A DNA stretch of 64,000 nt from Candidatus Thorarchaeota archaeon (GTDB taxonomy: Archaea > Asgardarchaeota > Thorarchaeia > Thorarchaeales > Thorarchaeaceae): assembly GCA_048882965.1 (NCBI GenBank), contig JBHLRC010000002.1, positions 21,993 to 85,992 on the forward strand. The letters are read 5' to 3'. The translations under genes and the position numbers were made by a program. The notes beneath the pieces are model-generated. The model ran no database searches, was not told where the DNA came from, and was given only the letters and a program-made list of their open reading frames with translations. Positions within the stretch are counted from its first letter, which is position 1. Each line of letters starts with the position of its first letter. Shown piece after piece: positions 6,439 through 58,586 of this stretch.

Positions 6439-6455
6439 CGTATTTTGTCTGCGAG

Positions 6456-6797: not shown

Positions 6798-6850
6798 GAT
6801 AATCCCAGTGAGATGCAAAAACAACCAGATAATGAGGTTTACTGAAAAAG

Positions 6851-6871
6851 TGGTGAGGAGGGCGAGATTCG
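6851..6871 (-). repeat. Partial duplicate of the tRNA-Leu 3' end (att-like direct repeat)
   Basis: tggtgAggagggcgagattcg matches 7331-7351 (tggtgCggagggcgagattcg) at 20 of 21 positions in the same orientation. It covers the CCA, discriminator, acceptor 3' strand and T-stem 3' strand. Confidence 0.6.
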
Positions 6872-6946
6872 GGATACTATTAGATATTCAACTAAGAAAA
6901 AGGATAATATTCATTTTTGCTATAGGGATTATGAGGAATTTTAAAA

Positions 6947-12922: not shown

Positions 12923-13025
12923 TGGAATTGCCTCTAGGTCCATTGATACCCTCAGAAACCGGGTCAGACCCACGGCTTAAAGCTGTGGATATAAAGATTA
13001 CCTTGTGGAGAAGGCTGTTCAATGG

Positions 13026-23248: not shown

Positions 23249-23263
23249 TTTATAGACCTCCGG

Positions 23264-25128: not shown

Positions 25129-25265
25129 ATACTCAGCCCCGGGTGGATTGTTGAGTTCAATGTAGAATCCATCTTGTTACTATTTAACCACCACACAGAA
25201 TTAGACCTGACCAATACTCACTCTGTAGATCTGGTCTACGATTGCATATTATAATTGAAAAACTG

Positions 25266-42216: not shown

Positions 42217-42293
42217 TGGTGCGACCGCCGGGATTTGAACCCGGCTTGGAAGCTTGGGAGGCTTCCGTCCTAACCAGGCTAGACCACGGTCGC
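42217..42293 (-). tRNA. tRNA-Gly (anticodon CCC)
   Basis: Reverse complement GCGACCG TG GTCT..GGAC G GAAGC CTCCCAA GCTTC CAAGC CGGGT TCAAATC CCGGC GGTCGC ACCA. 77 nt with encoded CCA. Confidence 0.9.
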
Positions 42294-42403: not shown

Positions 42404-43534
42404 ATGTCTGCTAAATATGAAACAATCAAATTCTGGCAGGGAAACCAAGCTTGTGCAGAAGCAGCGATTGCTGCAGGTTGTAGATTCTTTGCAGGTTATC
42501 CCATCACACCAGCCTCTGAGATTGCAGAGATTATGTCAGTCAAGCTTCCAAAGGTGGGAGGTGTATATCTTCAGATGGAAGATGAAATCGCTGCGATTTC
42601 TGCAGTGATTGGTAGCTCATGGGGTGGTGTTTTATCAATGACTGCAACTTCTGGTCCTGGATTTAGTTTAATGCAAGAGAATGTAGGGTATGCCATTATG
42701 ACTGAAACTCCTTGTGTCATAGTGAACGTTCAAAGAGCCGGACCCAGTACCGGACAGGCTACGAAAGCAGCTCAAGGAGACTTCATGCAGACGAGATGGG
42801 GAACTCATGGTGATCATGAAAGCGTTGTTCTTGCTCCGAACTCAGCTCAGGAAACCTACGAACTGACATTGAAGTCATTTGAACTCTCTGAAAGATTAAG
42901 GCATCCAGTCATTCTGTTGTCGGATGAGATTGTAGCACACTCAAGGGAAAAAGTCATTGTTGACACACACAAAGATGTATCTGTGAAGCGACGATACACT
43001 GTGAAGGGCAATAGACCATTTGGGGAGGTGGACACAGATGGGCATGCACTGATGCCTAGATTTGGTGATGGGCAAAATTTACTCATAACTGGATCAACCC
43101 ACAACGAGTTGGGATTTCGAAAAACTGCTGATCCGGAAGTCCACAATGAATTAGTTCGAAGATTGTCCAGAAAGATTTCGGATGCCTATGAGATACTAGA
43201 AGATTACGAGATTTCAGGTCCTGAAACCGCTACATGGGGCGTTGTTTCTTATGGTTCAACATCAAGGTCAATAGAAGAATTGATGGAAACTACTGATGAA
43301 CCAACAATCCGTTCTTTAAGGTTGAGAACGGTATGGCCATTCCCTGATGATGCGATAAGAGAGTTTGCTAAATCAGTTGATAATCTATTGGTTCCTGAGC
43401 TTAGTCTTGGCCAATTATCAAGAGAAGTAAGCAGAGTTGTAAGTGGAATAGTAGATGTTGTTTCCTTGAATAAGATTGGAGGGGGCCGTATGATTGAACC
43501 TGAAGAGCTACTTCGCACAATCAAGAAACCTTGA
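42404..43534 (+). CDS. korA: 2-oxoacid:ferredoxin oxidoreductase alpha subunit (KorA/PorA/VorA family)
   Basis: GNQACAEAAIAAGCRFFAGYPITPASE N-terminus and VWPFP..LVPELSLGQL C-terminus. Start at MSAKYE. No beta, gamma or delta subunit genes are adjacent. Confidence 0.85.
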   Translation: MSAKYETIKFWQGNQACAEAAIAAGCRFFAGYPITPASEIAEIMSVKLPKVGGVYLQMEDEIAAISAVIGSSWGGVLSMTATSGPGFSLMQENVGYAIMTETPCVIVNVQRAGPSTGQATKAAQGDFMQTRWGTHGDHESVVLAPNSAQETYELTLKSFELSERLRHPVILLSDEIVAHSREKVIVDTHKDVSVKRRYTVKGNRPFGEVDTDGHALMPRFGDGQNLLITGSTHNELGFRKTADPEVHNELVRRLSRKISDAYEILEDYEISGPETATWGVVSYGSTSRSIEELMETTDEPTIRSLRLRTVWPFPDDAIREFAKSVDNLLVPELSLGQLSREVSRVVSGIVDVVSLNKIGGGRMIEPEELLRTIKKP

Positions 43535-45216
43535 GTTTCTTCAATAGTTGATGGTATAACTAGTTCATTCGCATTTGATATCACTATAGAGAGATTCGTT
43601 CGCATCCATACTCTTACCGTAGTTGAGTAGTTAGTTGCCAAATAGTATGGACTAGTGATTACAAAGGTGATGTTGTGAATCCCAGGAGAAATCCACATTG
43701 GAAGAAAAACGGTTTGTGTTATATTTGCAATGATACTACCAGTGATTGCAAAAGGTGTAGCAATATAATCACAAAATACAGATAGATTGACTGAAGAAAC
43801 AGTTTGATTATTATCATCTAGAAGTGTTAGATTGAATTCTAGTGATTCTCCATAATATGAAGTGTCAACGTCCACATCCGCATCTATTATTCCAATGACT
43901 GTGAGATTGATGTTTGGATTTATTGAAAATTCGTAGTATTCACTATCCGGAAAAATATCCACAATATGTTGTCCTATGGATATGTTATGCCAGATGGGAA
44001 TTATCATGGAACTTGGATCATTTATTTGAACATCAATAAAATGTGAGAATTGAAATGATTCATCTATGAATCGTAATTGTATTGATTGATTCCAATCGAG
44101 GTATGAATCAATGGAAAAATCAATTGTAGCATTATTCCCTCTTGTTACATCCATAGAGAAGGAGGTAGTTGAGAAGACAAGAGAATTCGCTAGTACGTTC
44201 ACAATGACTGATGCTTCAGCAGCTTGGTATTGTGAATTGGTTGCAGTGATGTTGATTTGATATGTTCCAGGACTTGTATTGAAAGGAACTGTGTTTGAAT
44301 ATTGTCCATTTCCTAAATTTGTAAATGTCCCTGAACCAAAGCTTGATGTCCAATAAACACTGCTATCATTTATAGGACTTGAAAGTAAGTCCCTGTGTTC
44401 TACTGTTATTTCAGCCTGTTCGATGTAGCTAGCATCAGGCGATTGGCAAAAGACTGATTCAGGCGATGAAACTATAGAAAGGTTTGATGACGCAGGAAAA
44501 ACAGTCACTTCAAACGAATTTGAGAAAGAAAGGAAGTCTTCATTTCCATAGCTGGAAACAGTGAGATTGTATATACCAGGAGGCCCAAGTGTTTTACTCC
44601 AGTTAAGATAGGCTATTCCCTCTGAAGTTGTTGTTTTGTTAGACTCTAAAACTGTTTGCGAGTTTGAGTCTTCAACATGGAGAACAACTGATTCATTCGA
44701 ATAGACAACATTGTCGTTGTGGATACTGGCAATCTTCAGTGGGATGGATGTGTTTAACCCATATTCTACTGAGAGTGAAGTTAGTGGGATTGTGATAAGA
44801 TGTCCTCTATTGATTGTGACTTCAATATTGTCACCTGCGCTTTGAGAAACTGTGTCGAATATTTCGACAGTGAATAGAGCAAATGCCAGTACTCCTGTAA
44901 TCCCAGGTGAGGTATGCTCAGGTAAGATTGTATATGATGAGTTAAAGTAACGAACCAAAGGAGAAGGGGAGATGAAATATTCGTCTGCAAAGGAAGGACC
45001 AAGATCTGTTACTACTGCAAATGAAACGTAGCACCATCCATCGTTGCTGAAATCAGCTATGAGTTTTGTCACCATACCAATCGTCTCCCCAACTTCGTAA
45101 ACCAGTTTGTCTGTTTCAAAGTACTGAAAATCAAAATAGAAAGCTGAAACCGGGATGGCAATGCATGCGATACAGATTATTGATATGGGGAGTAGTGCTT
45201 TTGCTTTTCGATTCAC
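43249..45216 (-). CDS. Secreted multi-Ig-like repeat glycoprotein A (adhesin or S-layer-associated candidate)
   Basis: Signal peptide from the GTG start (MNRKAKALLPISIICIACIAIPVSA). Repeated modules of about 90 aa carry a PG.Y.(L/I).(V/I) signature, with dozens of N-x-S/T sequons. The last 92 or so residues are translated antisense to korA. Confidence 0.6.
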   Translation of the reverse strand: MNRKAKALLPISIICIACIAIPVSAFYFDFQYFETDKLVYEVGETIGMVTKLIADFSNDGWCYVSFAVVTDLGPSFADEYFISPSPLVRYFNSSYTILPEHTSPGITGVLAFALFTVEIFDTVSQSAGDNIEVTINRGHLITIPLTSLSVEYGLNTSIPLKIASIHNDNVVYSNESVVLHVEDSNSQTVLESNKTTTSEGIAYLNWSKTLGPPGIYNLTVSSYGNEDFLSFSNSFEVTVFPASSNLSIVSSPESVFCQSPDASYIEQAEITVEHRDLLSSPINDSSVYWTSSFGSGTFTNLGNGQYSNTVPFNTSPGTYQINITATNSQYQAAEASVIVNVLANSLVFSTTSFSMDVTRGNNATIDFSIDSYLDWNQSIQLRFIDESFQFSHFIDVQINDPSSMIIPIWHNISIGQHIVDIFPDSEYYEFSINPNINLTVIGIIDADVDVDTSYYGESLEFNLTLLDDNNQTVSSVNLSVFCDYIATPFAITGSIIANITQTVFLPMWISPGIHNITFVITSPYYLATNYSTTVRVWMRTNLSIVISNANELVIPSTIEETQGFLIVRSSSSGSIIRPPPILFKETTSTIPLTTLLTSLDNWPRLSSGTNRLSTDLANSLIASSGNGHTVLNLKERIVGSSVVSINSSIDLDVEP

Positions 45217-45338
45217 CTGTCTACACCAGAAACCTGTCTTTTCTATTCCTAAAAAACAGCACATGGATTCAACGGTAGGTTTAATTCACAGTGACATGCC
45301 ATCAACCACAGACTGTACCGGGTATAGGTGTATCATCG

Positions 45339-45704
45339 ATGGTAATTCGGCTAAAAACTGCTGTTATTAATTCTGTTGAGGAAACTGAAACTAGAAGATT
45401 GAAACTGTTAAAAGTGTCTGCGAAAAAAGATGGTGCCACACTTACATTGGAATTACCTGATGCATTATGTGACGCGTTGAATACTAATGATTCTATCACT
45501 GTAGTTGTTGACTCCAAGCCAATTGCAAAAGGTGAACAGGCCAAACTCTATGTTGAAAGCAGTGTTTTCAAGAAACTTGAGAAGAATGGTTTAGAAGTGA
45601 TTGGATCAGTGGGAGGACTGCGTATGGTATTCACACTAGCAAAGCCTACTTCAACTCAGAGCAAGATTTTCGACTCTGAGAAGTTCTTTCTGGCAATTAT
45701 GTGA
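45339..45704 (+). CDS. Possible RNA polymerase subunit Rpo8 (RpoG/Rpb8-like)
   Basis: About 121 aa. The C-terminal GSVGGLRMVFTL...KFFLAIM resembles the Rpb8 GGLLMRL...YLLMKK ending as I recall it. It sits next to a TFB gene. This is a weak, motif-level call. Confidence 0.35.
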   Translation: MVIRLKTAVINSVEETETRRLKLLKVSAKKDGATLTLELPDALCDALNTNDSITVVVDSKPIAKGEQAKLYVESSVFKKLEKNGLEVIGSVGGLRMVFTLAKPTSTQSKIFDSEKFFLAIM

Positions 45705-45868
45705 ATAAATGTACAAACATGATTACTTTCGGTCATCTCTCTTTCTGACTGGACTGGTAATGCCTGTTTAAGGTCCGTAGGAGTCCATTTGAATAAACTA
45801 GTCTTCTCTGTGAATGTATAACTAGTATCTGAAACTTAGTTAGGAATGATTGTACACACTCATAATGG

Positions 45869-46912
45869 GTGTGGTTTTTGACTGATGGAACATGTGAATC
45901 TCGTTTAACGAATTCAAAATCCTGTCCTGACTGTGGTGGTTTTTTAGTTACTAGTCAAGGACATATTGTGTGTGCTGAATGTGGACTGGTACTATCAAGA
46001 GAATATGTCTTGCCTACGTATCAGATGGGAGAACGCCCCAGTGGTGATTCTCCTGACGCGAGTATGTATGTGTCTTTGGGAAATCGAATGCATATTGTTG
46101 ATGGGCTTGGTAGTTACATAGGCTTTCACAAAGATCGATATTTTCAGGATTATCAAGGACATGCACTTTCTGGTAGAATGCAGAAGAAGTTCAAGCGTCT
46201 GAAGACAATATATAGTACCAGAATTAGAATTGGAAAGAATGAAGCGAAATATAGAGCTCTGCGGACCCTGAACCATGTATCAAAACTTCTTATGATTAAT
46301 GAACAGGTTCGTGATCGAACTGCATATCTATACAAGAAAGTGGTGAATGAAACTGCGGGTAATGTTAGCAATAACATACTGCTGATAGCAGTCTGTCTTC
46401 TTATGGCTGTGAGAGAGTTCAAAGATGAAGCCCCAATAACACTTGATGAGATAGCTGATGTGTTTGAGAAATGTGGACATCGAGTCAATGTGAGGGCAAT
46501 TGTACGAGAAGCACTGAGACTCAAGTCACTTACTGGTTACTCACCGGAGATACGAAAGCCAGAGGATTATGTCCCAAGAGTGATTTCAATGTTGATGAAT
46601 AATCCAAAGGTGGTCAGTAAAGTCCAAGCACGTGGTTGGGAGCTGAAGGATTTTGAGAATGCTCTTAGGAACAAGATACTGGAAGTTCTCAAGATGATAC
46701 CAGCTTCAAAACGAGGAGGAAGGAACCCGTTCATATTCACTGTTTCTGCAGCATATGCAAGTGATAGATTGATAGCTGTGGAACATGGAAGACGAGCTGT
46801 TCTGACTCAGAAACTTGCGTCTGCTGCAACAGAGGTGGCTGAGTACAGTATTAGAGACCACTTTGGGATGATGAAGAAAATCATCGAAGTGTCCCCAGCA
46901 TCTATCCAATAA
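45869..46912 (+). CDS. tfb: Transcription initiation factor TFB (TFIIB family), divergent paralog
   Basis: N-terminal zinc ribbon CPDCGG..CAECGLVL and two cyclin-fold-like repeats (LIAVCLLMAVRE.., FTVSAAYASDR..). Confidence 0.7.
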   Translation: MWFLTDGTCESRLTNSKSCPDCGGFLVTSQGHIVCAECGLVLSREYVLPTYQMGERPSGDSPDASMYVSLGNRMHIVDGLGSYIGFHKDRYFQDYQGHALSGRMQKKFKRLKTIYSTRIRIGKNEAKYRALRTLNHVSKLLMINEQVRDRTAYLYKKVVNETAGNVSNNILLIAVCLLMAVREFKDEAPITLDEIADVFEKCGHRVNVRAIVREALRLKSLTGYSPEIRKPEDYVPRVISMLMNNPKVVSKVQARGWELKDFENALRNKILEVLKMIPASKRGGRNPFIFTVSAAYASDRLIAVEHGRRAVLTQKLASAATEVAEYSIRDHFGMMKKIIEVSPASIQ

Positions 46913-46979
46913 TCTGGTTGATCCATCTAGGAGGTTATCTAGCAATTTTCTGAATAGGAAATTGAAAAGAGGTGACTAG

Positions 46980-48662
46980 GTGAACGCAAAAATCCATGTG
47001 ATTCGTTGTCCCAGCGGACGTTGTGAAACATGTCCTCAGAGAAGAAACAGTGGTTGCCAAAAACTCATACATATCAATGAGCTAAAAGGTATGAAATCAC
47101 AGGTGCTGTTAGTTGAACCCGAGAGAGGATTTCTTCACTTCTGTGAAGCAGGAAGTTTGAAGCAATCTGAACCTTCGTGGATTACTGATGGGTGGGAAAG
47201 TGTATTCATTGGTACTGATAGTGATTTGTTTCAAGAAGTGGATGATATAATTGCTTTGTACAAAGTCGGACCCTATTTGTCTATGTTCATGCTTGATGAG
47301 TATAAGCAGACAATACACGATGCAGTCCCGATAGTGAGAACAGCTCTAGAACATTCACTTGTTGTTGATTTGAGCCAAAAGTCAGTGCAGTTTGGTGATA
47401 AGTCATGTTTCGTAAGGGGAGATTATAATCAGAAATTGAATCAGGATATTGATGACATCTCAAAGCATATTATGAGTTCGATACCTGAGATAAATGAGAT
47501 TACAAGAATCAGACTTTCGGAGATAATTGCGTATCGTCGGAGCATCCTTGGAAAGATTATGCCAATAATTCTTGACGACTCTGTGGAGGAGATATACTTA
47601 GACCGACCTTATGCCCCTATTTATTTCGACCATCAGGAGAATGGTAGATGTGTCACTTCAATTACATTCCAAGATGATGATGTACCAAATATAGTCACAT
47701 TGATTCGATCTGAAAGTAATCTTCACTTGGATCGAAGTAATCCATCTCTTAAGATGGATTTCCAAATTAAGGATGCAGTTTTGCGGTTTTCTGCAAGTAT
47801 GCCGCCCCTTAGTCCGGATGGATTAAGTCTTGAGATACGTAGAGCTAAAAGCAATCCATTCACAATCAAGAACTTAATTGATAATGAAACACTGACTCCT
47901 GAAGCGGCGGCAGTTTTACTTTTTGCAGTTTCTTGTAGATTCAATATCACTATTACCGGAGGTCCTGGGACTGGAAAGACAACTCTGTTGAACGCATTAG
48001 ATATGACAACTCCAAATTGGTGGCGAAAAATCTACATTGAAGACGCGATTGAGAGCAGAGAACAGGCAGCATACCATCAAGTTCGTTTTAGAGTAGATCC
48101 AATGGATGAGTTGTCAATGAAGTTTAGTAAAAGTGAGGAAATTATAAAATGTCTTCATCGGTCGCCAGATTATCTCATTCTTGGTGAAATTCAAACAGCT
48201 GAGCATAGTAGAGCATTGTTTCAAGCAATAACAGCCGGTCTCCGTACTATCCAAACCTGTCATAGTGGATCAGCTGCTAGTCTTATTTCTAGGTGGAAAT
48301 TTGGGCATGGAATACAGGATGATAATCTTGCTTTGATGGATGTTATTGTTACCCTTGACAGACCAAAGCCAGGTGAGTCAAAACGTAGGGTAAGTGAGAT
48401 TATTGAAATACGAAAAAGAGAAGTAAATGGATTATTAGAATTCAACGGATTGAATGTGATATACGATAGTAAGCTGGGAGTGGTTAGTAACTGGGCGGAT
48501 GATGGAGCATTTATGTCACGTGCAAGAGAATCTGGAGTTGAGAGTCATATCCCTGCTTTAGAGAACTTGATTCAGAATATTTGTCAAGACAATTATGTAT
48601 CAAATCTGGGGATGTTAAGTGAACTAATGTGGTCATACGGACATCCTATGTTGTATATTTGA
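46980..48662 (+). CDS. Type II/IV secretion-family ATPase (FlaI/VirB11/TadA-like) with a Cys-rich N-terminus
   Basis: Walker A GGPGTGKTT, IYIEDAIE and ILGEIQ..E..ALFQA..G....T.HS motifs. N-terminal CPSGRCETCP..GC cluster. Confidence 0.8.
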   Translation: MNAKIHVIRCPSGRCETCPQRRNSGCQKLIHINELKGMKSQVLLVEPERGFLHFCEAGSLKQSEPSWITDGWESVFIGTDSDLFQEVDDIIALYKVGPYLSMFMLDEYKQTIHDAVPIVRTALEHSLVVDLSQKSVQFGDKSCFVRGDYNQKLNQDIDDISKHIMSSIPEINEITRIRLSEIIAYRRSILGKIMPIILDDSVEEIYLDRPYAPIYFDHQENGRCVTSITFQDDDVPNIVTLIRSESNLHLDRSNPSLKMDFQIKDAVLRFSASMPPLSPDGLSLEIRRAKSNPFTIKNLIDNETLTPEAAAVLLFAVSCRFNITITGGPGTGKTTLLNALDMTTPNWWRKIYIEDAIESREQAAYHQVRFRVDPMDELSMKFSKSEEIIKCLHRSPDYLILGEIQTAEHSRALFQAITAGLRTIQTCHSGSAASLISRWKFGHGIQDDNLALMDVIVTLDRPKPGESKRRVSEIIEIRKREVNGLLEFNGLNVIYDSKLGVVSNWADDGAFMSRARESGVESHIPALENLIQNICQDNYVSNLGMLSELMWSYGHPMLYI

Positions 48663-48731
48663 TAATAGGAGTACGGGGTGCTCTTTTTTGGGGGCTTTAA
48701 AAGGTGGCAGATAAACATGAGTTCAAGGTGA

Positions 48732-48947
48732 ATGCATTTGAAAAAGGATGATGGTCTTATTCGTAATGAGAGAGGAGGTCCTTTGGTGGAAGAGAGTCTT
48801 CTCCTTGGTCTCGCAGTGGTAACTGTTTCGATTGTAATAGCAGTCATCCTTCAAGCTACAGGATGGGCACAGGATGTTGTAAATGGACTTTTGCAACTCT
48901 TGCAAGATAGCTGGAGTAGTCTAACTCAATTGTTTGGCACACCATGA
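48732..48947 (+). CDS. Flp-like / class III signal-peptide mini-pilin candidate
   Basis: A charged leader (MHLKKDDGLIRNERG) is followed by G-P-L-V-E, placing Glu at +5, and a 20-aa hydrophobic helix (SLLLGLAVVTVSIVIAVIL). It lies directly downstream of the ATPase. Confidence 0.5.
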   Translation: MHLKKDDGLIRNERGGPLVEESLLLGLAVVTVSIVIAVILQATGWAQDVVNGLLQLLQDSWSSLTQLFGTP

Positions 48948-49150: not shown

Positions 49151-51250
49151 TCATCCAACTAGGTATTTTCGTCTTAGAAATGGTACTATTGAGAGCCCAA
49201 TAGATATGGCGAGAACTACTACTAGACCCGTAATACCTACTCCTTCTAGCGATATGATATCAGATGCTGATATTTCAATTAAGAATGAGCCACTGGTTGA
49301 ATGGACTGATTCCGATTCTTCAGAATCGTACGACAAGAAATGGTTTCCACTTGTAGCAGGAATTTTGAGGTGGAGTGTGATAATTCCTCCTTCTTTGCTT
49401 TCAATTGTATCAATTGAATCTAACCAATTGAAACTCACAGTGATTCCCTGTGGGGTTGATCCATTGAGGGCTGTAACTGTTATGTGAACTGATAGTTCAC
49501 GAAGTGAGGGGACTATTTCGTAAAAATCTAGCTCAAGTCGTATGGGCATTTTATGAGTGACATAGAGACTGTAGTCTAATTTGGTTGCTAGCTCAAAGAG
49601 TGCGTTATTTCCGTTATATGATATAGTGATGTTGTATTGGTCTTCTTGGGATGGAGCTGTGAAAATCAGAGTCGTTCCACCAGTGATATTGGTATGAACT
49701 GAGAGGTGACTCTCACCATCAATTGAGAGATGTATTTCTCTGAGTGAAAAATTCCCTGCCCAGTCGTTCATTTGAATCTCGAAGACTATCTCTTGATCGG
49801 GTGAGGCATAATGCTCAACATTGCAAGCTACTAGTAGAATCTCAGGTTTGGACCATACTGTAAGGTTACTAACCAGGCTAGTATCTAATATGAAAGGATT
49901 TCCAGCGAGCTCGATTTTCAGAATATGAACACCTGGCGGACCTTGCAGTTCATACTCAAAGATGGTAGTTATTTCACTCAAGCTGGAGGGTATTGTAAAC
50001 CTTTGATTTGATGTGATATCTAATATTGATATATCGAAATCAGGGATAAGACGATCTAGTAAGTCGGATGCTGATACTTCAATCTCGAAAATCACACCAA
50101 TTTCAACTGATTCTGGCAATGTCACCGTTAGCTGTACTGGAGTTAATATTGTGAGATATGCTTCATAATATGATTCGGAGTATCTTTCAGTTCCATTGTA
50201 TTGTATTTTCAATGTGTGAGTACCAAGTGTGAATCTTTCATCAATATCGGTATGAAAATGAGCAATACCTGAGCTGTTGGATGTAATATAGGAGAGTAAG
50301 TTGTCATCCAAGGTGACTTCCAGAAGCTCGTTTGGCAGTGAGTCGTTTGTATCTGAAAGTTCAATATACAGATTAAAGGATTCATCAAGCATTATTTCAT
50401 TTGGGTGACTACTTTGAGGAATAATTGAGGTTGCAATTTTCGATATATTGACCGTGAACATGGATTCTGATGAATCTAGGAAACTGTCTAAATCTTGACT
50501 GTAAACCACACGGATGTTATTGTCCCCTAGTGTAATCCATGAACTATTACACTTAATTTCAAAATGTGTTTCTCCTGAAGAATCAGTTTTGTTTTTCGCA
50601 AGTAGAGTGTCATTCTTGAAAACAGCAATAGTTGCATCTGGAATGGAACTAGATGAATCGTCGGTTAGATGAACAGAAAATGTCAATGTATCACCAGGAG
50701 CAAGTATGTCTGAAATTTGACTAATGGTAATGTTTGTCGCGGATAAGATAGAAAGGACTGTCCATTGGGCAGAGGACGCTAATGAGAGCGAATCATTACC
50801 ATAGAAGGTTGCATTAATCATCGTCATTCCAAGTGTATGATTCAAAGGAATAGACCATGATATCATTGCGACTCCGTTTGTGTCTGTCTTAGCAGAACCA
50901 AGTGGAATATTGTATGTCTGATCAAAGAAGAATATCCATTGGTCTGGAACTGGGTTTCCATAGCTGCCATTCTGAAGGAGTGTTGCCGTTATTGTGATTG
51001 TGGTTCCTCGAGTTGCCACTATTTCCTCTTCTGCTACAACAGGTTCAGTACTGAATGATGTAACAAAGAGTGCGAGTAGAAAGATGAGTAATATCGAGAC
51101 CCAATATGATTTCCTGATGTTCGTTACCCCCTGGGGGAAGTTATGTTCCGTACTCTTCTGAAGATTCGTCACCAGTTCATCATTCGGTTTCTGGGTTTTT
51201 ATTCTCCTATAGAATGAATATTGCTGGGATGTTTGTTTAGGGGTGTTCAT
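49151..51250 (-). CDS. Multi-Ig-like repeat surface glycoprotein B with a C-terminal TM anchor
   Basis: N-terminal signal-anchor YWVSILLIFLLALFVTSF and repeated Ig-like modules with a PG.H.L.I signature and many N-x-S/T sequons. C-terminal ITGLVVVLAISIGLSIVPFLRRKY. The start is trimmed to MNTPKQ to avoid overlapping the divergent gene. Confidence 0.65.
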   Translation of the reverse strand: MNTPKQTSQQYSFYRRIKTQKPNDELVTNLQKSTEHNFPQGVTNIRKSYWVSILLIFLLALFVTSFSTEPVVAEEEIVATRGTTITITATLLQNGSYGNPVPDQWIFFFDQTYNIPLGSAKTDTNGVAMISWSIPLNHTLGMTMINATFYGNDSLSLASSAQWTVLSILSATNITISQISDILAPGDTLTFSVHLTDDSSSSIPDATIAVFKNDTLLAKNKTDSSGETHFEIKCNSSWITLGDNNIRVVYSQDLDSFLDSSESMFTVNISKIATSIIPQSSHPNEIMLDESFNLYIELSDTNDSLPNELLEVTLDDNLLSYITSNSSGIAHFHTDIDERFTLGTHTLKIQYNGTERYSESYYEAYLTILTPVQLTVTLPESVEIGVIFEIEVSASDLLDRLIPDFDISILDITSNQRFTIPSSLSEITTIFEYELQGPPGVHILKIELAGNPFILDTSLVSNLTVWSKPEILLVACNVEHYASPDQEIVFEIQMNDWAGNFSLREIHLSIDGESHLSVHTNITGGTTLIFTAPSQEDQYNITISYNGNNALFELATKLDYSLYVTHKMPIRLELDFYEIVPSLRELSVHITVTALNGSTPQGITVSFNWLDSIDTIESKEGGIITLHLKIPATSGNHFLSYDSEESESVHSTSGSFLIEISASDIISLEGVGITGLVVVLAISIGLSIVPFLRRKYLVG

Positions 51251-51324
51251 ATGCTTAACGAGGGTACGATGGTTCGGTTCCGTATGTAGCCATTCTTGGA
51301 ATAAACATGATGAGGAGTTCATAG

Positions 51325-54300
51325 ATGCCATTTCGCTTTGCGCAACTAAAAGAAACAGGTTCGGGTTCTGAAAAGTTGTATAGAAGAACATGGATTGAGT
51401 TATTCTGGATGGCTGGAGTAATGATTGCAGTATTCTATTTGTTGCTTGTCTATTTACTACCTTTAACTGGACTTGTTTCTCTGCCAGTGGTTCCGTTCAA
51501 GGGATTTATTGAAGTGGTAATTTGTGTTATTCCAATTGTTACAAGTCTGGTATTGACTGCTAGGAAGATACGTTTTCAAAACCCACTGATTTGCATTGAA
51601 GACAATACATTACTGATTCAGCTTGATGATTATGTTATTGGGACATGTTGTCTTGATATGGAATCTGTGTCGGGTTCAGTATTTTTGGATGAGAATGGGA
51701 AACCAAGGTATAATGAAACTATGTTATTAGCTATGCGTGCAGGAATGGACAAATCAATCACAATGGCTTTTGAGGCAGGTGTAGAGAAAGGAGAACCATT
51801 TCTACATATCTTCATAACTGCAATGGGGCACAGTCCAAGGCACATTCAGGAACTTCTCAGAAGAGAAGCAACAAGAACTGAGGCAATTCTATTATCATCC
51901 CTAAATAATGTAGAGATGAAGCTTCTTGAGGGCGATTCACTACGAAATGCAACTCTGACTCATTTGAGTGGAGTGAGTATAGGAGATCATAGTCTCAGTG
52001 TCAATGAAGAAACAAAATCAACGAGAGTGTTGTTGCTTCAAGGATTGCCACGGTCATATCCAACTCAGGACTCATCTCAGATTGGTACCTTCATTTCTAC
52101 AGCACTTAGACAAGGCTATGAAACAAGTATGACATGTGTTTTTTCAGCATCTAAACCTGGTAAGGAGAAACGTGCACTTGAAAGTCAGTGGAAAAGTATT
52201 CAGGCAAAAGAAAAACGAAAAGAAGAATCATTGCAGGATCATGCTACAAAGAAGAAGCTTGTGTCTCGTTTTGAAGAGATTCAGGATTCAGCTGGTTGGT
52301 TTAATACAACTGTATATTTCAAAGTAAAAACATCGACAAAGAGTGCCATTGAAGCAGATTTAGACGGAGTAAGTGGATTGGTTCTATCAATCTGGGGTGG
52401 TAGTGACTCTATCAAACTTGGTTCTGTGAAATTATCAAGAAGAACAATTTTTCGGATACTGAATCGCCGTCATCTCAAACGTCGACGAATGCACATAGTA
52501 AGATTATCGTCGTTCATCAATACTCCAATTCGACAACTACCTATGCTCACTCCGAAACAAGCACCTGTATTTCCTGTACCTCCAAAGGGAATAGTGGACC
52601 ATGAACTTGTTATTGGTGAAACTATCTTTGAAGGTCGTCGGTTGTCTAAAGTTGGATTGAAAACTGATTGGTTACGTGAACACATTGCCATTCTTGGGGC
52701 AACCGGAACTGGAAAAACAAACTTAGTAAAACAGCTTATGGCACAGCTTAGTGTGAAGACAAATGTACCATGGTGGATATTTGATGTCAAGGGTTCTGAG
52801 TACCTAGGTCTAAAAAATCATGGTGAGTCAGAGATTCTAGTCTTGAAACCTGGTCTTGATAGCTCGTTTTCGTTTAATCTAATTGACCCTGAACTAGTTG
52901 ATGATGAGAACTATACTCATTCTACGTTTGTGATTCTAAGAGAGTTGTTGAATGAGAGAGGGGATTCTTCCGAGTTGTCTCCAGCAATGGAGAAGCTGCT
53001 TCGTGATTCAGTGATGCTTGCTATGGAATCTGTAGATAGTTGTAATTCAGTTCGATCTTTAGTTAGTGCTGTATCAGAACTCTCTAACAATGACCGCATG
53101 GGAAATATGACAAGAGATGCTTTACTTAATCGCCTTGAGATACTCACCCGTGAACCTCTGGGCTCGATTTTTGGAGGAAAGTCAGAAGCAATCCGATTCA
53201 AAGATCTGTTGAATAGGCGTGTTATCCTAGATCTCTCATACGTTGCACGTGTCGGAGGAATGGATTCTGCTAGATTCCTTTACAATCTTATTGCCAAACG
53301 TATCTTTGATAGTGCGATGAAACGAGGTATAATTGAAGGCCTACATCATGTTGTAGTGTTGGAAGAAGCTAGTAATCTGGTACCAGAGAGCTACACAAGG
53401 CACTCTGCAGCTGACGTGACAACTGGGGAATCGATGGTGATGCTACAACGAGCGACAGGCCAAGGCGTAATCGTGGTTTCGACTAGACCTAATATCTCCT
53501 CGAATATTTTAGCTAATACTTTGACAAAGATTTCCTTTCGATTGCCATATGATAGTCAGATTGGTGCTAGATTCCTCTCCTTGAACGAAGGACAGGAACA
53601 GTATCTTCGAACATTGAAACGGGGGAGGGCTTTAATGAGTATACCTCACTCAGAAACTTTTGAGATTGTCACAGAGAAGTTTCATGAGCCAAGAAAAGAA
53701 GATCAAACAGAATCTTCATCCATTGTTGATGTTCCCATTGTAGAAGAATCTGTTTCTAGCAGAAAGGAAGATACACCTGCAACAGATTCAGAGATTAAAA
53801 AACCATCTGATGTTCCCGAGAGTCAGACTCTGGTGTTCAATAGAATTGATAGACTTGGAAGTCATGTCGTAGCATTTCTAGCATCAGAGGGATGGGCAAC
53901 AGAAAGTGAGATTTGTAATCTACTATCTGTCTTAGATTCTAGGGTTGCAGATGATGATATTTCCGAAGTGATTCGTAATCTAGTATCGTTGGGAAGTGTA
54001 GAGAGAGAAGCACTATCTCTTGTTGATGGCGGTTTTGTATATACGCTTCCTGGAAAAGCCATGGGTGCTATCAGACAAATAATTATTGAATATATATCTG
54101 GAAAACTTGGGATTGAGTATAACCCCGTTAGCACATCTGATAATCCTGATTGGCCAGATATTGTATTCGATGACAAGGCGGTAATTGTCATTCCTGAACA
54201 TTTGAGAGCGTCAACAATGAGCTTGACGTTAAATCTGATAAGAAATAAAATGAGCAAGCTTCAGAATGGTGTGAGTGAGCTTTTCGTAGTCGTAAGAGGT

Positions 54301-55110
54301 AGTGTTGCAGCAGCAAAAATAAGGGAAATGATGGATTCATCAGAGGACTTCAATGATGTTAGTGTTGTTTCTGCATTTCCAAGAGCTCTGGACTCAATAA
54401 TTGGGAGCTTGGCTCAGGAATCTGATTCTTCTGAAATCTCCTTAGTCCAGACTAGGTTGACAGAGGATGAGAACTCTAGTGAACATGTAGATTTGATTGA
54501 TGCAATGCATGGTGTAGGGTCTGCCACAAACCGTGCAATCCAGATTCGATTATGGTTTGGTTTGATTCAAGATCTTGTAGACATTTCAAACGGTCAAGTT
54601 AGGTGGGAAGAACTGCTAGAATTCATTGAAACCACTGCTCTTCAGTCATTAAAAGGAAGATCGGCTCCATTGAATATTGAGGAGGGGAAAAGGGCATTAA
54701 CAGAGTTATTAGCTGATGAAGTTCTCATTGCCCTTCGTGTCAATAATGATTCTCGATTCGTCGAGCTTGACGAGGGGCTCTGGTTGGTTAATTCTTCGGT
54801 TCTTAAAGGTTTCAAAGAAAAAGCAATAGATATGATTGAAAAAGAGCTGAAAAAGAAATACTCTACAGTTTCAAGGAATCATGGATACTATGACCTTTGT
54901 GTTGGCGATACTTCTTATGTGATATTTCCAAATCAACAACAATTGAATACTCTTCTTAATTTACATAGTGATGTTGCTTGTAGGACCTGTAAATCAACGA
55001 GAGTAGTCTGTGTTTTGACTGCATCAGAGTATCTAGAAGAGAGTGTGACTACACCAACTAATCTGATTATCAGGACTATGGATGATAATGCATCAGCACT
55101 GGTTACTTGA
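51325..55110 (+). CDS. Membrane-anchored giant HerA/FtsK-superfamily (VirB4/TrbE-like) ATPase with a long C-terminal wHTH-containing extension
   Basis: Two N-terminal TM helices; Walker A GATGTGKT (52696-52719), Walker B HHVVVLEEASNL, STRPN..ILANT motif, and about 500 aa of extra C-terminal sequence. The start could be 51409. Confidence 0.7.
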   Translation: MPFRFAQLKETGSGSEKLYRRTWIELFWMAGVMIAVFYLLLVYLLPLTGLVSLPVVPFKGFIEVVICVIPIVTSLVLTARKIRFQNPLICIEDNTLLIQLDDYVIGTCCLDMESVSGSVFLDENGKPRYNETMLLAMRAGMDKSITMAFEAGVEKGEPFLHIFITAMGHSPRHIQELLRREATRTEAILLSSLNNVEMKLLEGDSLRNATLTHLSGVSIGDHSLSVNEETKSTRVLLLQGLPRSYPTQDSSQIGTFISTALRQGYETSMTCVFSASKPGKEKRALESQWKSIQAKEKRKEESLQDHATKKKLVSRFEEIQDSAGWFNTTVYFKVKTSTKSAIEADLDGVSGLVLSIWGGSDSIKLGSVKLSRRTIFRILNRRHLKRRRMHIVRLSSFINTPIRQLPMLTPKQAPVFPVPPKGIVDHELVIGETIFEGRRLSKVGLKTDWLREHIAILGATGTGKTNLVKQLMAQLSVKTNVPWWIFDVKGSEYLGLKNHGESEILVLKPGLDSSFSFNLIDPELVDDENYTHSTFVILRELLNERGDSSELSPAMEKLLRDSVMLAMESVDSCNSVRSLVSAVSELSNNDRMGNMTRDALLNRLEILTREPLGSIFGGKSEAIRFKDLLNRRVILDLSYVARVGGMDSARFLYNLIAKRIFDSAMKRGIIEGLHHVVVLEEASNLVPESYTRHSAADVTTGESMVMLQRATGQGVIVVSTRPNISSNILANTLTKISFRLPYDSQIGARFLSLNEGQEQYLRTLKRGRALMSIPHSETFEIVTEKFHEPRKEDQTESSSIVDVPIVEESVSSRKEDTPATDSEIKKPSDVPESQTLVFNRIDRLGSHVVAFLASEGWATESEICNLLSVLDSRVADDDISEVIRNLVSLGSVEREALSLVDGGFVYTLPGKAMGAIRQIIIEYISGKLGIEYNPVSTSDNPDWPDIVFDDKAVIVIPEHLRASTMSLTLNLIRNKMSKLQNGVSELFVVVRGSVAAAKIREMMDSSEDFNDVSVVSAFPRALDSIIGSLAQESDSSEISLVQTRLTEDENSSEHVDLIDAMHGVGSATNRAIQIRLWFGLIQDLVDISNGQVRWEELLEFIETTALQSLKGRSAPLNIEEGKRALTELLADEVLIALRVNNDSRFVELDEGLWLVNSSVLKGFKEKAIDMIEKELKKKYSTVSRNHGYYDLCVGDTSYVIFPNQQQLNTLLNLHSDVACRTCKSTRVVCVLTASEYLEESVTTPTNLIIRTMDDNASALVT

Positions 55111-56051: not shown

Positions 56052-56363
56052 ATGACTCAGAGAGCAAGAATCAGATTATCTAGTACAAGTACAGAACACC
56101 TAGATGGTGTATGTAATCAAATCAAGAGGATTACTCGCAAAACAGGTGTCCGAATGGCGGGTCCAATACCTTTACCAACCCGTAGAATGGTTATTCCAAC
56201 TAGAAAGACTCCTTGTGGTCAGGGATCTGAGTCTTGGGATAAATGGGAGATGCGGGTCCATAAACGATTAATTGACATTGATGCAGATGAAAGAGCTATT
56301 CGTCAGATAATGCGTGTGAGAATCCCTGATTCTGTCTATATTGAGATTGAACTGACTGGTTGA
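56052..56363 (+). CDS. rps10: 30S ribosomal protein S10 (uS10)
   Basis: ARIRLSS..HLD..C..I....[11 protein letters not shown] and WEMR.HKRLIDI motifs. Confidence 0.9.
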
Positions 56364-58328: not shown

Positions 58329-58586
58329 GTGAAACCGATGTGGCTGTTTTCAATTCTTAGTCCATTAACTGACTTTGCGAACCTGATAGCAGGGTACTTC
58401 ATGGAAATTTGGGAGTTCCTGATTTTCATAGGGAATATTTCTGCATTCGTGGTTGTCTTAGTGGGTGCAATATTATGGTTCACCGGAGTGAATGATAAGA
58501 GAGGGAAGGGATTGGTCTTGAGCGGTATTCTTCTAGCAATAATTGTTCAGTACTTTGTTTTCTACCCACCTTCATTCATATTATAG
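58329..58586 (+). CDS. Small two-TM membrane protein (VirB2/TrbC-pilin-like topology)
   Basis: 85 aa. A leader-like N-terminus is followed by two hydrophobic helices separated by the basic loop GVNDKRGKG. Confidence 0.45.
   Translation: MKPMWLFSILSPLTDFANLIAGYFMEIWEFLIFIGNISAFVVVLVGAILWFTGVNDKRGKGLVLSGILLAIIVQYFVFYPPSFIL

Follow-up and report, generated by a model that had tools for sequence, protein, structure and literature searches.

A VirB4-like membrane ATPase of Thorarchaeota with recurrent pilin-like neighbours

Positions 51325..55110 (plus strand) of a 64-kb window, the whole stretch of Thorarchaeota DNA analysed here, encode a VirB4-like ATPase that is anchored in the membrane and extended at its C-terminus, as assigned from the ORF, the Pfam DUF87 match and the Foldseek match to VirB4.

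Membrane anchor, N-domain and ATPase core

The ORF begins with ATG. Its product of 1261 aa starts with two strong TM helices, which are followed by an N-domain of ~340 aa, a P-loop core of the HerA/FtsK type that is intact, and ~470 aa of C-terminal extension. The start codon is credible because the N-terminal 'MPF' is conserved in the homologs. We found 221 homologs. The best 120 share 54-92% identity, are for the most part full-length and, where the source is named, come mainly from Thorarchaeota; other Asgard lineages have more distant relatives (25-35% identity). The gene is genuine, chromosomal and highly conserved in Thorarchaeota, a lineage of Asgard archaea. The first-pass annotation did not recognise this architecture, and our literature search likewise found no description of the family.

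The two TM helices proposed earlier for the start of the ORF were clearly visible as Kyte-Doolittle peaks of 2.39 (aa 29-47) and 2.44 (aa 61-79) in a 19-residue window. The hairpin, with TM1 at ~aa 28-47 and TM2 at ~aa 61-79 (51406..51561, plus strand), is flanked by K/R residues ahead of TM1 and behind TM2, in keeping with a predicted N-in/C-in topology with both ends cytoplasmic, and upholds the earlier claim of membrane anchoring. One or two N-terminal TM peaks were also seen in the full-length family representatives without N-terminal truncation, and N-terminal TM segments in nearly all distant relatives of full length. We take this hairpin to resemble that of VirB3-VirB4 fusions.

The N-domain (aa 85-425; 51577..52599, plus strand) is basic (pI 9.3) and was assigned as a VirB4-NTD-like α/β domain from AlphaFold2, Foldseek, HMM and charge. 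The AlphaFold2 model mf0ba12df876f reached a pLDDT of 70-94 in most 10-residue blocks of aa 85-405, and the pTM values of the models were modest (0.46-0.47). When the model of aa 85-800 was submitted to Foldseek, the top match was full-length TrwK/VirB4 of plasmid R388 (8rtd_O, E 5.1e-17, 821 alignment columns), while VirB4 represented by its CTD only (4ag6) and HerA (4d2i) were matched at E 6.5e-7 and 6.5e-9, respectively. As full-length TrwK outscores both, the N-domain adds to the VirB4 match, and in the predicted model full-length VirB4 is a far better fit than HerA. The resemblance to VirB4 proposed in the first-pass annotation is therefore supported at the level of structure (E 5e-17 versus 6.5e-9 for HerA). 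No Pfam family of the VirB4 N-domain, PF03135 included, matched the protein, and no HAS-barrel match was found. An HMM of the N-domain picked up the Hel, Njord, Ran and Baldr relatives and, weakly, those of Loki.

The HerA/FtsK-superfamily ATPase domain (aa 426-790; 52600..53694, plus strand) was delimited by Pfam DUF87, NCBIfam CedD and conserved motifs. DUF87, the HerA central domain, matched at E 3.4e-14. The core residues of the Walker A motif GATGTGKT (aa 458-465; nt 52696-52719, plus strand), the Walker B motif VVVLEE (aa 677-682, within HHVVVLEEA at aa 675-683) and the STRPN motif (aa 719-723) vary little or not at all among 32 homologs, in agreement with the P-loop core described previously. 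The best NCBIfam match was CedD (E 2.7e-15, aa 423-777), at 56 bits against a cutoff of 600, while TIGR00929 (VirB4) gave 24 bits against 643 and Pfam FtsK_SpoIIIE 16 bits against 24, the latter over the P-loop only. The HMM comparison suggested by the first-pass annotation thus recovered the core through DUF87 and CedD but left the protein far below the curated cutoffs for VirB4, CedB and CedD. As it falls far under every such cutoff even though its core is nearest to CedD, we regard the ATPase as a separate family.

The DUF87 core and membership of the FtsK-HerA superfamily are shared with HerA of the HerA-NurA system and with HerA-like defence ATPases, and a role as the HerA-type ATPase of an anti-phage defence system was considered. 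PADLOC matched the ATPase core to mad8 (E 3.8e-14) and, at up to 7.5e-9, to several HerA models, but these matches are confined to the shared part at aa 441-774. No effector (Sir2, DUF4297 or nuclease) is adjacent, the gene lies in a core, syntenic, vertically inherited setting, and neither the membrane anchor nor the VirB4-like N-domain fits such a role. The protein also differs from HerA itself in its membrane anchoring, the missing HAS-barrel match and the absence of NurA, Mre11 and Rad50 from its neighbours; moreover, one locus (L020) has a canonical HerA-NurA as a separate locus adjoining the distant ATPase relative P0177. The defence reading is already disfavoured and we give it hardly any credence.

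Winged-helix modules of the C-terminal extension

The core is followed by a poorly conserved acidic linker (aa 791-834; 53695..53826, plus strand; pI 4.2) with a pLDDT below 50 and no alignment consensus. The AlphaFold2 model macdd7dfef692 of the extension contains two modules in which a winged helix precedes a small α/β domain, with a pLDDT of 70-90 in most 10-residue blocks. Module 1 (aa 835-1040; 53827..54444, plus strand) is predicted by AlphaFold2 and Foldseek to combine an acidic winged helix with a β-α-β domain. Foldseek matched it to the winged helices of MarR, RTP and MukE (probability 0.9-1.0), its invariant residues are P944-D945, P957 and R991-G-S-V-x-A-A, and one copy was detectable in the relative P0140 (E 3.8e-8). 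Module 2 (aa 1069-1261; 54529..55107, plus strand), defined by AlphaFold2 and invariant residues, is predicted to pair an acidic winged helix with a β-rich domain and holds the densest cluster of invariant residues apart from the ATPase motifs. Its four invariant cysteines (C1192, C1219, C1222 and C1229) suggest a probable metal site. A sequence profile of this module gave no match in the PDB.

The earlier description of two similar winged-helix modules holds for the presence of a winged helix in both (AlphaFold2, Foldseek), while their sequences show no significant likeness to each other (hhalign, 25 columns, E 0.13). A degenerate PD-(D/E)xK nuclease fold, also proposed for them, is not supported: the structural matches include no nuclease and the catalytic positions are absent. 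The same applies to their description as DNA-binding-like. Both winged helices are acidic (pI ~4.5, net charge ~-6) and negatively charged in 32/32 homologs, which argues against direct DNA handling and makes classical DNA binding by these modules unlikely.

FtsK/SpoIIIE has a similar layout, in which an ATPase pump is anchored in the membrane and ends in a winged helix, and the protein might move chromosomes during segregation or division as FtsK does, its winged helices corresponding to the FtsK γ domain. It is a member of the FtsK-HerA superfamily and is apparently encoded by one conserved chromosomal gene in Thorarchaeota; orc1/cdc6 lies ~9 kb away, and Loki and Ran loci retain a remnant of the order Cdc6, ATPase, S10/ribosomal genes. 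However, the FtsK_SpoIIIE score stays under the Pfam threshold, the N-domain is different and VirB4-like, no γ-domain match was obtained for the acidic winged helices, and the recurrent pilin-like neighbours described below would be unexpected for a segregation motor. We therefore consider this function very improbable.

Gene neighbourhood in the window and across relatives

The gene order around the ATPase is conserved in Thorarchaeota (42-92% identity). Divergent to it lies an Ig-repeat surface protein (49151..51391, minus strand; Big_3_5 E 1.1e-22). It has a signal/TM segment towards its N-terminus and a TM anchor at its C-terminus (TM peaks at aa 97 and 718), and it probably starts inside the ORF, near 51250. 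Orthologs occupy the same position in five loci (L001-L005), and in L009 an Ig-repeat homolog (E 7e-18) is divergently paired with an ATPase relative. A second Ig-like surface protein, a 671-aa ORF (43249..45264, minus strand) with weak Big_1/MG2 matches, also has orthologs in L001-L005.

The plus strand encodes a secretion-type (TadA/VirB11/FlaI-like) ATPase with a Cys-rich N-terminal segment (46980..48662; Pfam T2SSE E 8.8e-20), for which all NCBIfam matches were below cutoff (TadA-family 9e-26, TrbB 2e-21, FlaI 3e-20, VirB11 3e-18), and a Flp-like 1-TM protein of 71 aa with the motif RGGPLVEESLLLG (48732..48947, plus strand), recognised by its TM peak and a family HMM. Homologs of the T2SSE ATPase lie ~10 kb or less from the ATPase in the Hel loci L006, L010, L013 and L021. 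The Flp-like HMM found copies adjoining ATPase relatives in L006, L010, L016 (4.5e-14) and L017 (1.7e-15), so that this partner occurs in four arrangements (Thor; Hel L006/L010; Hel L016; Loki L017). Pfam Flp1_like matched weakly and for the Hel copy only (E 0.047), and the proteins of L016 and L017 have no glycine at position -1, which a prepilin needs.

The ATPase could accordingly be an accessory motor of a T4P-like (Tad/Flp-like) surface-filament and adhesin system working without nucleic-acid transfer, with a part in the assembly, anchoring or secretion of the Flp-like pilin and Ig-repeat glycoproteins. The T2SSE ATPase and Flp-like genes directly upstream in the window speak for this, as do the divergent Ig-repeat/ATPase pair kept in L009, a T2SSF-like platform protein in Hel and Baldr loci (in L031 and L034, a T2SSF-like polytopic gene and an Ig-like gene lie 6-8 kb upstream of the ATPase relative) and, in L020, a Peptidase_A24 (prepilin peptidase) gene (31.2 bits, cutoff 26.5) separated by 89 nt from the more distant relative downstream of it. 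Acidic winged helices would also suit protein-protein interaction better than DNA binding. Against this, T4P systems are not known to use VirB4-like ATPases, the closest linkage is to a 2-TM VirB2-like protein rather than to T2SSE, and in Loki L017 and Hel L016 the Flp-like gene adjoins the ATPase and the sequence examined (<=10 kb each side) contains no T2SSE. We regard the accessory-motor role as possible but doubtful.

The mini-protein in question, TM85 (82 aa; 58338..58586, plus strand), lies 3.2 kb downstream of the ATPase in the window and has two TM peaks with a KRGKG loop between them. It is 82-93% identical among the Thor loci and belongs to a family of 578 members, all without annotation. 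A profile search against the PDB gave no match, and PF04956 TrbC/VIRB2 matched weakly in 2/6 family members (E 0.0053); it is thus a candidate VirB2/TrbC-like pilin by topology, adjacency and the weak Pfam match. In seven Baldr-/Ranarchaeia-type loci (L018, L028-L032 and L034), a TM85 homolog (E 3e-7 to 1e-13) is encoded directly upstream of the ATPase relative, with a gap of ~40 nt where measured. All four kinds of neighbour given in the first-pass annotation, namely the Ig-repeat protein, the T2SSE ATPase, the Flp-like ORF and the 2-TM mini-protein, were found, whereas no VirB6/CedA-like polytopic protein, of the kind that it proposed to look for near homologs, is encoded within the 64-kb window.

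Upstream of the secretion ATPase lies a divergent TFB/TFIIB paralog with a Zn ribbon and a cyclin repeat, identified by domain matches (45869..46912, plus strand). It is 41% identical (E 2e-89) to the gene directly 5' of the Hel ATPase paralog in L006, and such a gene is directly upstream of the Hel paralog also in L010, L013 and L021 (37-41% identity overall). It is preceded by a gene for a 121-aa protein (45339..45704, plus strand) that is conserved in L001, L003 and L005 and has no Pfam, NCBIfam or PDB profile match. The operon 45339-48947, though not the ATPase, contains gene kinds similar to those of the Thermoproteales T4P-like 'subclade 4D' operon, compared by description (arCOG05557-05559), which joins the genes of a membrane protein, a TFIIB homolog and RPB8 to that of a secretion ATPase bearing a small Cys domain at its N-terminus (Makarova et al. 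2016, PMC4858521). That description includes no VirB4/HerA-like ATPase, Flp-like or Ig-repeat protein, and its membrane protein has 4-5 TM helices against 1 TM in the window counterpart. The 121-aa gene sits where RPB8 does in that operon (PMC4858521), a likeness of position only.

These genes raise the reading of a transcription-linked membrane device, in which the binding partner of the acidic tandem winged-helix/4-Cys modules would be the basic TFB paralog (or components of RNA polymerase) from the nearby genes, to be tethered or released on cell-surface events. The recurrence of the TFB-like gene upstream of the Hel paralog, the opposite pI values (9.5 for the TFB-like protein, 4.5 for the winged helices) and the transcription-related role suggested for the Thermoproteales operon (PMC4858521) are in its favour. 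Foldseek also pointed to tandem-WH transcription factors (Pol III C34, TFIIIC), but weakly (probability 0.4-0.6, TM ~0.13). In many relatives the available sequence contains no TFB-like gene, the identification of the 121-aa gene as RPB8 is unsupported, and the VirB4-like motor and pilin-like partners would be left unexplained. Such a device is improbable.

The recurrent neighbours of the ATPase relatives, in rearranged orders, are thus the 2-TM VirB2-like mini-protein, the Flp-like 1-TM protein, the secretion-type ATPase and anchored Ig-repeat proteins. The linkage is repeated for the first two and looser for the secretion-type ATPase, the T2SSF-like polytopic protein, the prepilin peptidase and the Ig-repeat surface proteins. 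The TFB-like, T2SSE, Ig-like and ATPase genes stay within ~14 kb in the Thor and Hel arrangements examined despite rearrangement; L007, L014 and Hel paralog B have no partner genes within the sequence available. Some linkage within Thorarchaeota may be mere inherited gene order, but the link between the ATPase and pilin-like genes is real and exceeds it, as TM85-type genes adjoin the ATPase in the Baldr-/Ranarchaeia-type loci and Flp-like genes recur in Hel and Loki.

A mobile origin, which the first-pass annotation had raised, was rejected: the gene order is conserved in Thorarchaeota, the GC and tetranucleotide composition of the region shows no anomaly, and no close viral or plasmid relatives were found. 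The gene is not mobile.

A candidate motor of a T4SS-derived apparatus

Of the known systems compared, the group of VirB4/TrwK/TrbE of bacterial T4SS and TedB of Thermoproteales includes the top structural match across the two domains (TrwK/VirB4, E 5e-17), and in the relatives a small 2-TM VirB2-like protein adjoins the ATPase. The differences are the scores (TIGR00929 24 bits versus 643; no PF03135 match), the extra C-terminal winged-helix/α/β modules, the absence of VirB6, VirB8, VirD4 and relaxase genes, and a location outside any mobile element. The Ced ATPases CedD and CedB have TM segment(s), a VirB4-NTD-related N-domain and then a HerA/VirB4-type ATPase, and CedD, a TM + NTD + ATPase protein, is essential for DNA import in Saccharolobus (PMC11868833). 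The order of parts is identical in the Thorarchaeota protein, for which CedD is the best NCBIfam match (2.7e-15, aa 423-777); both systems are chromosomal rather than plasmid-borne, and Ced pairs with a separate T4P (Ups) as the ATPase lies near T2SSE/Flp-like genes. However, the ATPase domain alone aligns to CedD (56 bits versus 600), CedB and CedD each have a partial VirB4 NTD whereas the whole VirB4 is matched here, the ~470-aa extension is absent from the CedD architecture (PMC11868833), no CedA-like channel gene is near, and Ced is crenarchaeal while this ATPase is Asgard.

We propose, at a probability of about one half, that the ATPase is the motor of a chromosomal, vertically inherited, T4SS-derived (Ced/Ted-like) membrane apparatus of Asgard archaea. 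A hexamer anchored by 12 TM helices would sit on the cytoplasmic face of the membrane and spend ATP on pulling out and polymerising the small pilin-like subunit, on driving a macromolecule (DNA or protein) through the membrane, or on both. Surface contact might come from the Ig-repeat proteins and the T4P-like module, as Ups pili provide it for Ced, and the acidic winged-helix/α/β/4-Cys modules may be adaptor or regulatory domains recruiting partners or substrate. From the first-pass idea of a candidate core of an undescribed DNA-translocation or secretion machine, the VirB4 fold, the pilin-like links and the lack of a published description remain, while the DNA-binding modules and the mobile origin do not, and no VirB6-like gene lies in the window. 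Since it is VirB4-shaped and has recurrent pilin-like neighbours, the ATPase is probably the motor of a pilus, secretion or DNA-transfer apparatus that has not been described before.

A membrane-anchored ATPase of VirB4 shape

The ATPase gene (window 51325-55110, + strand) begins with ATG and encodes 1261 aa, the first residues of which, MPF, are kept among the homologs. The hydropathy scan gave two peaks, 2.39 (aa 29-47) and 2.44 (aa 61-79), and basic residues precede the first helix and follow the second one. From these features the protein is predicted to carry a helical-hairpin anchor with both ends in the cytoplasm, in agreement with the membrane anchoring proposed in the first-pass annotation. 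In some T4SS, VirB3 is fused at a place to which this hairpin may correspond. The HerA/FtsK-type P-loop motifs noticed earlier were all located, namely GATGTGKT at aa 458, HHVVVLEEA (including VVLEE) at 675-683 and STRPN at 719-723. The Walker A, Walker B and sensor motifs are intact, and across 32 homologs their core residues vary little or not at all.

Among the profiles that the annotation had named, DUF87 (the HerA central domain) matched the protein in Pfam with E 3.4e-14, and members of the family are currently labelled only 'DUF87', 'ATP-binding' or 'hypothetical'. The Pfam matches to TrwB, HerA_C and FtsK were short and confined to the P-loop. No cutoff of the curated NCBIfam models for CedD, CedB, VirB4 and HerA was reached. 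The best of these was CedD (56.1 bits vs a cutoff of 600, aa 423-777 only), and the scores for the other three families, which the annotation had also put forward, were far under their cutoffs (CedB, 22.5 vs 700; VirB4, TIGR00929, 24 bits vs 643.1; HerA, NF040937, 22 bits vs 800). The N-domain model PF03135 (CagE_TrbE_VirB) gave no match to the protein at E up to 0.01 and, for the 32 homologs, was not among the matches listed with an E of 1 or less. The profile of the whole protein retrieved only weak HerA/DUF87 matches from the PDB.

The fold was examined in an AlphaFold2 model of aa 85-800 (pLDDT 72, pTM 0.47). The best PDB match found by Foldseek was full-length TrwK/VirB4 of plasmid R388 (8rtd_O; E 5.1e-17, about 820 (821) columns, probability 1.0), and the same model matched the CTD-only VirB4 structure 4ag6 with E 6.5e-7 and HerA with E 6.5e-9. 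As the full-length TrwK match is much stronger than that to the VirB4 CTD alone, the N-domain contributes to it. The model thus predicts the two-domain VirB4 fold, with a VirB4-type N-domain and a RecA-like C-domain, and the VirB4/TrbE N-domain logic noted in the first-pass annotation holds at the level of the fold.

Two other assignments of the core were considered. For a segregation motor like FtsK, the FtsK_SpoIIIE match was restricted to the P-loop and scored 16 bits vs 24, and no FtsK γ winged helix was among the Pfam matches listed for the protein and the 32 homologs. Membership of FtsK/SpoIIIE was rejected, and such a motor is highly improbable. To a HerA acting in defence we give almost no weight. 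That reading aside, membership of the HerA (HerA-NurA) family was rejected on the HAS-barrel, the NurA-Mre11-Rad50 operon and the cutoff, and no NurA neighbour was found in the window.

The acidic C-terminal extension

The AlphaFold2 model of aa 790-1261 had an overall pLDDT of 67, with the folded parts mostly at 70-90 per 10-residue block. It predicts a disordered acidic linker followed by two modules (aa 835-1040 and 1069-1261), each composed of a winged helix and a small α/β domain. Foldseek matched the winged helices to MarR, RTP, MukE, YodB and viral MarR-type proteins (probability 0.9-1.0), so that both modules have the winged-helix fold by structure search as well as by model, as had been proposed from the sequence. 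The α/β parts gave no convincing Foldseek match, and the profile of the extension gave none in the PDB.

The α/β parts had been read as a degenerate PD-(D/E)xK fold, which received no structural or sequence support. No nuclease was present in the top 50 PDB or BFVD structure matches, and the predicted β3 strands (aa 952-957 and 1196-1200) are without the acidic-x-Lys motif; module 2 does show the α-β-β-β-α-β order. An internal duplication was also rejected, as the hhalign comparison of the two modules was not significant (E 0.13 over 25 columns). Their secondary-structure patterns run parallel, and the sole stretch aligned is the 'D...hhhhP' segment that the annotation had pointed out.

Each winged helix has a pI of about 4.5 and a net charge of -6, and across the 32 homologs the charge ranges from -9 to -2, negative in all. 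A basic DNA-binding surface was not found on either. The acidity makes classical DNA binding doubtful, contrary to the DNA-binding-like role first ascribed to these modules, and a role in protein interaction is more likely. Apart from the ATPase motifs, nowhere are the invariant residues packed as densely as in module 2. The cysteines of this module, C1192, C1219, C1222 and C1229 (C-x26-C-x2-C-x6-C; nt about 54898-55011), are invariant and are kept even in an ortholog only 32% identical over the extension; they probably form a metal site, Zn or Fe-S.

The full extension is confined to the Thorarchaeota-type family. A single copy of module 1 was found in the relative P0140 (E 3.8e-8), and Helarchaeota and Baldrarchaeia relatives have winged-helix-containing tails of their own, as judged by eye. 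At the Baldrarchaeia-type locus L031, a separate 351-aa protein with two winged helices (HTH_20 and HTH_45/MarR; 13000-14055, - strand) is encoded convergently just past the ATPase. It may correspond, as a free-standing protein, to the fused Thorarchaeota tail; it gave no significant match to the HMMs of the Thorarchaeota modules.

Distribution and chromosomal setting

The protein search returned 221 relatives, the best 120 of which are mostly full-length (about 1225-1290 aa) and 54-92% identical. The named ones among these 120 come mostly from Thorarchaeota MAGs, with a few labelled Sifarchaeia or Promethearchaeota. With aa 62-1261 as query, the exhaustive search (E up to 1e-3) gave 1859 representatives. 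Those of full length extend down to 42-47% identity and, where named, belong to Thorarchaeota, apart from one MAG with the label Lokiarchaeota. In a second tier, at 25-35% identity, the alignment is limited to the N-domain and ATPase; the named members of this tier are from Helarchaeota, Lokiarchaeota, Njordarchaeota and Ranarchaeia, and one subfamily is probably from Baldrarchaeia, going by the names on homologs of a neighbouring mini-protein. Matches from Heimdallarchaeota and 'Asgardarchaeia' are more distant and cover the ATPase only. Between 1 and 6 TM segments stand at the N-terminus of nearly every full-length relative, and some Helarchaeota and Lokiarchaeota relatives have 3-6 at their own N-terminus. 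At least two ATPase paralogs are present per Helarchaeota genome; the genome scan with a narrower alignment (A5) detected Helarchaeota only.

In the window, which is Asgard DNA of Thorarchaeota, the genes follow the order POR, Ig-like (-), 121-aa protein, TFB-like, secretion ATPase, TM protein of about 70 aa, Ig-like (-), the ATPase under study, an isopentenyl-phosphate-kinase-like gene (-), S10 and GlmS. This order is kept in Thorarchaeota loci where the ortholog is 57% (L001/L002), 70% (L003) and 42% (L005) identical. The 43-55 kb region, when checked against the rest of the window, showed no anomaly in GC or tetranucleotide composition. No relatives were found on viral contigs, which were scanned with two C-terminal patterns able to detect close relatives only, and plasmid and phage records gave matches of 23-27% identity limited to the ATPase core. 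The sole tRNA nearby is a tRNA-Gly (42217-42293). The gene order in L001-L005, the composition and the lack of close viral or plasmid relatives rule out a mobile element, and the mobile origin raised in the first-pass annotation is abandoned. We conclude that the gene is chromosomal and vertically inherited.

The window also holds orc1/cdc6 (40788-42005) and S10 (56052-56363), and a remnant order of Cdc6 (with an HTH_5 gene), ATPase and ribosomal genes was seen in Thorarchaeota, Lokiarchaeota and Ranarchaeia loci (S10 in L018, L2/L23 in L017), which places the ATPase in an old region of the core genome near a likely replication origin. In one Thorarchaeota lineage, an IS605-type TnpB/OrfB lies between the Ig-repeat gene and the ATPase ortholog (L001, 8537-9808; L002, 8536-9807), so insertions are evidently tolerated between these divergent genes. 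About 285 nt (window 43249-43534) are shared by the 671-aa Ig-like ORF (-) and the 3' end of the convergent POR alpha-subunit gene (+), and the calls in L001 and L002 overlap similarly.

Pilin-like partners and a possible transfer apparatus

The neighbours described earlier, an Ig-repeat protein (49151-51391, -), a secretion ATPase (46980-48662, +) with a Flp-like protein and a mini-protein proposed to be VirB2-like, are all present. The mini-protein, with 82 aa and two TM segments (58338-58586, +), is encoded 3.2 kb downstream of the ATPase and is 82-93% identical across the Thorarchaeota loci examined. Its family has 578 members, all annotated as hypothetical; two of six members weakly matched PF04956 (TrbC/VIRB2 pilin; E 0.0053), and its profile gave no match in the PDB. 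Homologs (E 3e-7 to 1e-13) lie directly upstream of an ATPase relative in seven Ranarchaeia- and Baldrarchaeia-type loci (L018, L028-L032 and L034), at a distance of about 40 nt where measured. The comparison of neighbourhoods advised in the annotation yielded this candidate for a VirB2-like gene; a VirB6/CedA-like polytopic gene was not found, as no ORF with at least three TM segments is present anywhere in the 64-kb window.

The 71-aa Flp-like protein (48732-48947, +) has a TM helix preceded by the motif P-(V/L/I)-(V/T)-E-E-x-L-L-x-G. Its homologs stand beside ATPase relatives in four arrangements, in Thorarchaeota, Helarchaeota L006/L010, Helarchaeota L016 (4.5e-14) and Lokiarchaeota L017 (1.7e-15). 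The Thorarchaeota and Helarchaeota paralog-A copies have G at -1 and E at +5, as in Flp prepilins; in L016 and L017, position -1 is F. At L013, a polytopic protein of 503 aa follows the secretion ATPase, and its homolog in L031 matches T2SSF weakly (E 0.0083). At L020, a Peptidase_A24 gene (31.2 bits, above the cutoff of 26.5) lies 89 nt upstream of a more distant ATPase relative that has only the ATPase domain in common with the Thorarchaeota protein. Prepilin peptidase or platform identity was rejected for this 503-aa protein of L013 and for a 217-aa membrane protein of L016, which had no Pfam match. L020 also encodes a canonical HerA (491 aa, DUF87) with NurA (4215-6874), 3 kb from the membrane-anchored ATPase relative, so that two HerA-superfamily proteins coexist there as distinct genes.

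The TFB-like protein (45869-46912, +) is 37-41% identical to the product of the gene directly upstream of one Helarchaeota paralog (L006, L010, L013 and L021), where a secretion ATPase and an anchored Ig-like protein are encoded within about 10 kb; the order of these genes differs between L006/L010 and L013. The divergent Ig-repeat/ATPase pair recurs in L009 (ATPase about 27% identical; Ig protein E 7e-18). No such partner genes were found in the available sequence of L007, L014 and the second Helarchaeota paralog (B).

Further genes were observed around the relatives. A Roadblock/LC7 protein, a protein of about 310 aa and an Arf/Ras-like GTPase are encoded 26 kb from the ATPase (22673-25176, -), and homologs of this trio (27-46% identity), which recalls the MglA/MglB regulators of pilus polarity, occur within the Helarchaeota ATPase/Ig-like/secretion-ATPase cluster (L006, 17565-20083; L015, 3536-6013). 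A B12-binding radical SAM gene adjoins the ATPase relative in L006, L008/L012, L013, L017, L021-L022 and L024-L027, convergent and downstream in Helarchaeota and upstream in Lokiarchaeota L017; the downstream position in the window is taken by the isopentenyl-phosphate-kinase-like gene.

The block at 45339-48947 (+), with the 121-aa protein, TFB paralog, secretion ATPase with a Cys-rich N-terminus and small TM protein, comprises the same kinds of genes as the Thermoproteales T4P-like 'subclade 4D' operon of Makarova et al. 2016, when compared by description. In that operon, genes for a membrane protein, a TFIIB homolog and RPB8 accompany a secretion ATPase that has a small Cys domain at its N-terminus, and a role connected with transcription was suggested by the authors (PMC4858521). 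That the 121-aa protein is RPB8 was not supported, the Pfam, NCBIfam and PDB profile searches being all empty; a GGLxM-like motif was seen by eye. A transcription-linked device, with which the TFB paralog would fit, is very doubtful. The linkage to T4P-type genes would also suit an ATPase that is purely an accessory of T4P or adhesins. This is rather unlikely; the Flp-like genes of L016 and L017 accompany ATPase relatives with no secretion ATPase in the available sequence, up to 10 kb on each side.

The ATPase is recurrently linked to T4P-type genes, to Ig-repeat genes and to the genes of two small membrane proteins that resemble pilins, and it is very probably the VirB4-like membrane motor of a pilin-associated system. 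It shares with VirB4 the fold and the intact motifs and differs in its score below the TIGR00929 cutoff and in the window having no VirB6-type gene. What defines Ced and Ted is a VirB4-like ATPase together with a VirB6-like channel and a VirB2-like pilin (PMC9905601). In the DNA-import system of Sulfolobales, the second ATPase, CedD, consists of TM, N-domain and ATPase, and CedB and CedD each resemble a part of the VirB4 N-domain (PMC11868833). The Thorarchaeota protein has the same architecture of TM, N-domain and HerA/VirB4-like ATPase, whereas it matches the whole of VirB4 in one polypeptide. The CedA/CedA1 partner, induction by DNA damage and DNA import are features of Ced, and the window has no CedA-like gene. 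No account of this family was found in the literature on Asgard archaea with VirB4, CedB, HerA or T4P, nor any report of a Ced/Ted-like system in them, which agrees with the suggestion that the machine is undescribed. We conclude that these proteins form a distinct family of VirB4/Ced-type motors in Asgard archaea, in which the tail is unique and the gene neighbourhood is a T4SS/T4P hybrid.

That the ATPase is the motor of a Ced/Ted-like, T4SS-derived apparatus has in our estimate a probability of about one half. As a hexamer on the inner membrane face, the motor would polymerise the small subunit, drive a macromolecule across, or both; contact would come from the Ig-repeat proteins and the T4P-like module, and the acidic winged-helix/four-Cys tail would act as an adaptor. 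A bolder proposal, with the odds well against it, is an ancient, chromosomally fixed hybrid in several Asgard lineages. Here the VirB4-like motor and VirB2-like pilin would be coupled to a T4P-like module (secretion ATPase, Flp-like pilin, prepilin peptidase and Ig-repeat adhesins) and a dedicated TFB paralog, so that cells in contact would exchange chromosomal DNA or pass macromolecules to their partners, with the tail linking transfer to transcription.

Eukaryotes have their closest known relatives among the Asgard archaea. To our knowledge, little is known of the contacts of these archaea with other cells, or of how they exchange material with them and acquire their DNA, and we know of domesticated conjugation-type machines (Ced, Ted) from Crenarchaeota only. 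In cultured or enriched Asgard strains, cryo-ET, pilus purification and genetics would have concrete targets in the ATPase, the 82-aa two-TM protein and the 71-aa Flp-like protein, and the ATPase adds a possible missing partner to the unexplained Thermoproteales 'secretion ATPase + TFIIB + RPB8' operon of 2016. If true, the hybrid machine would be the first known system of transfer between cells in those archaea that are closest to eukaryotes.
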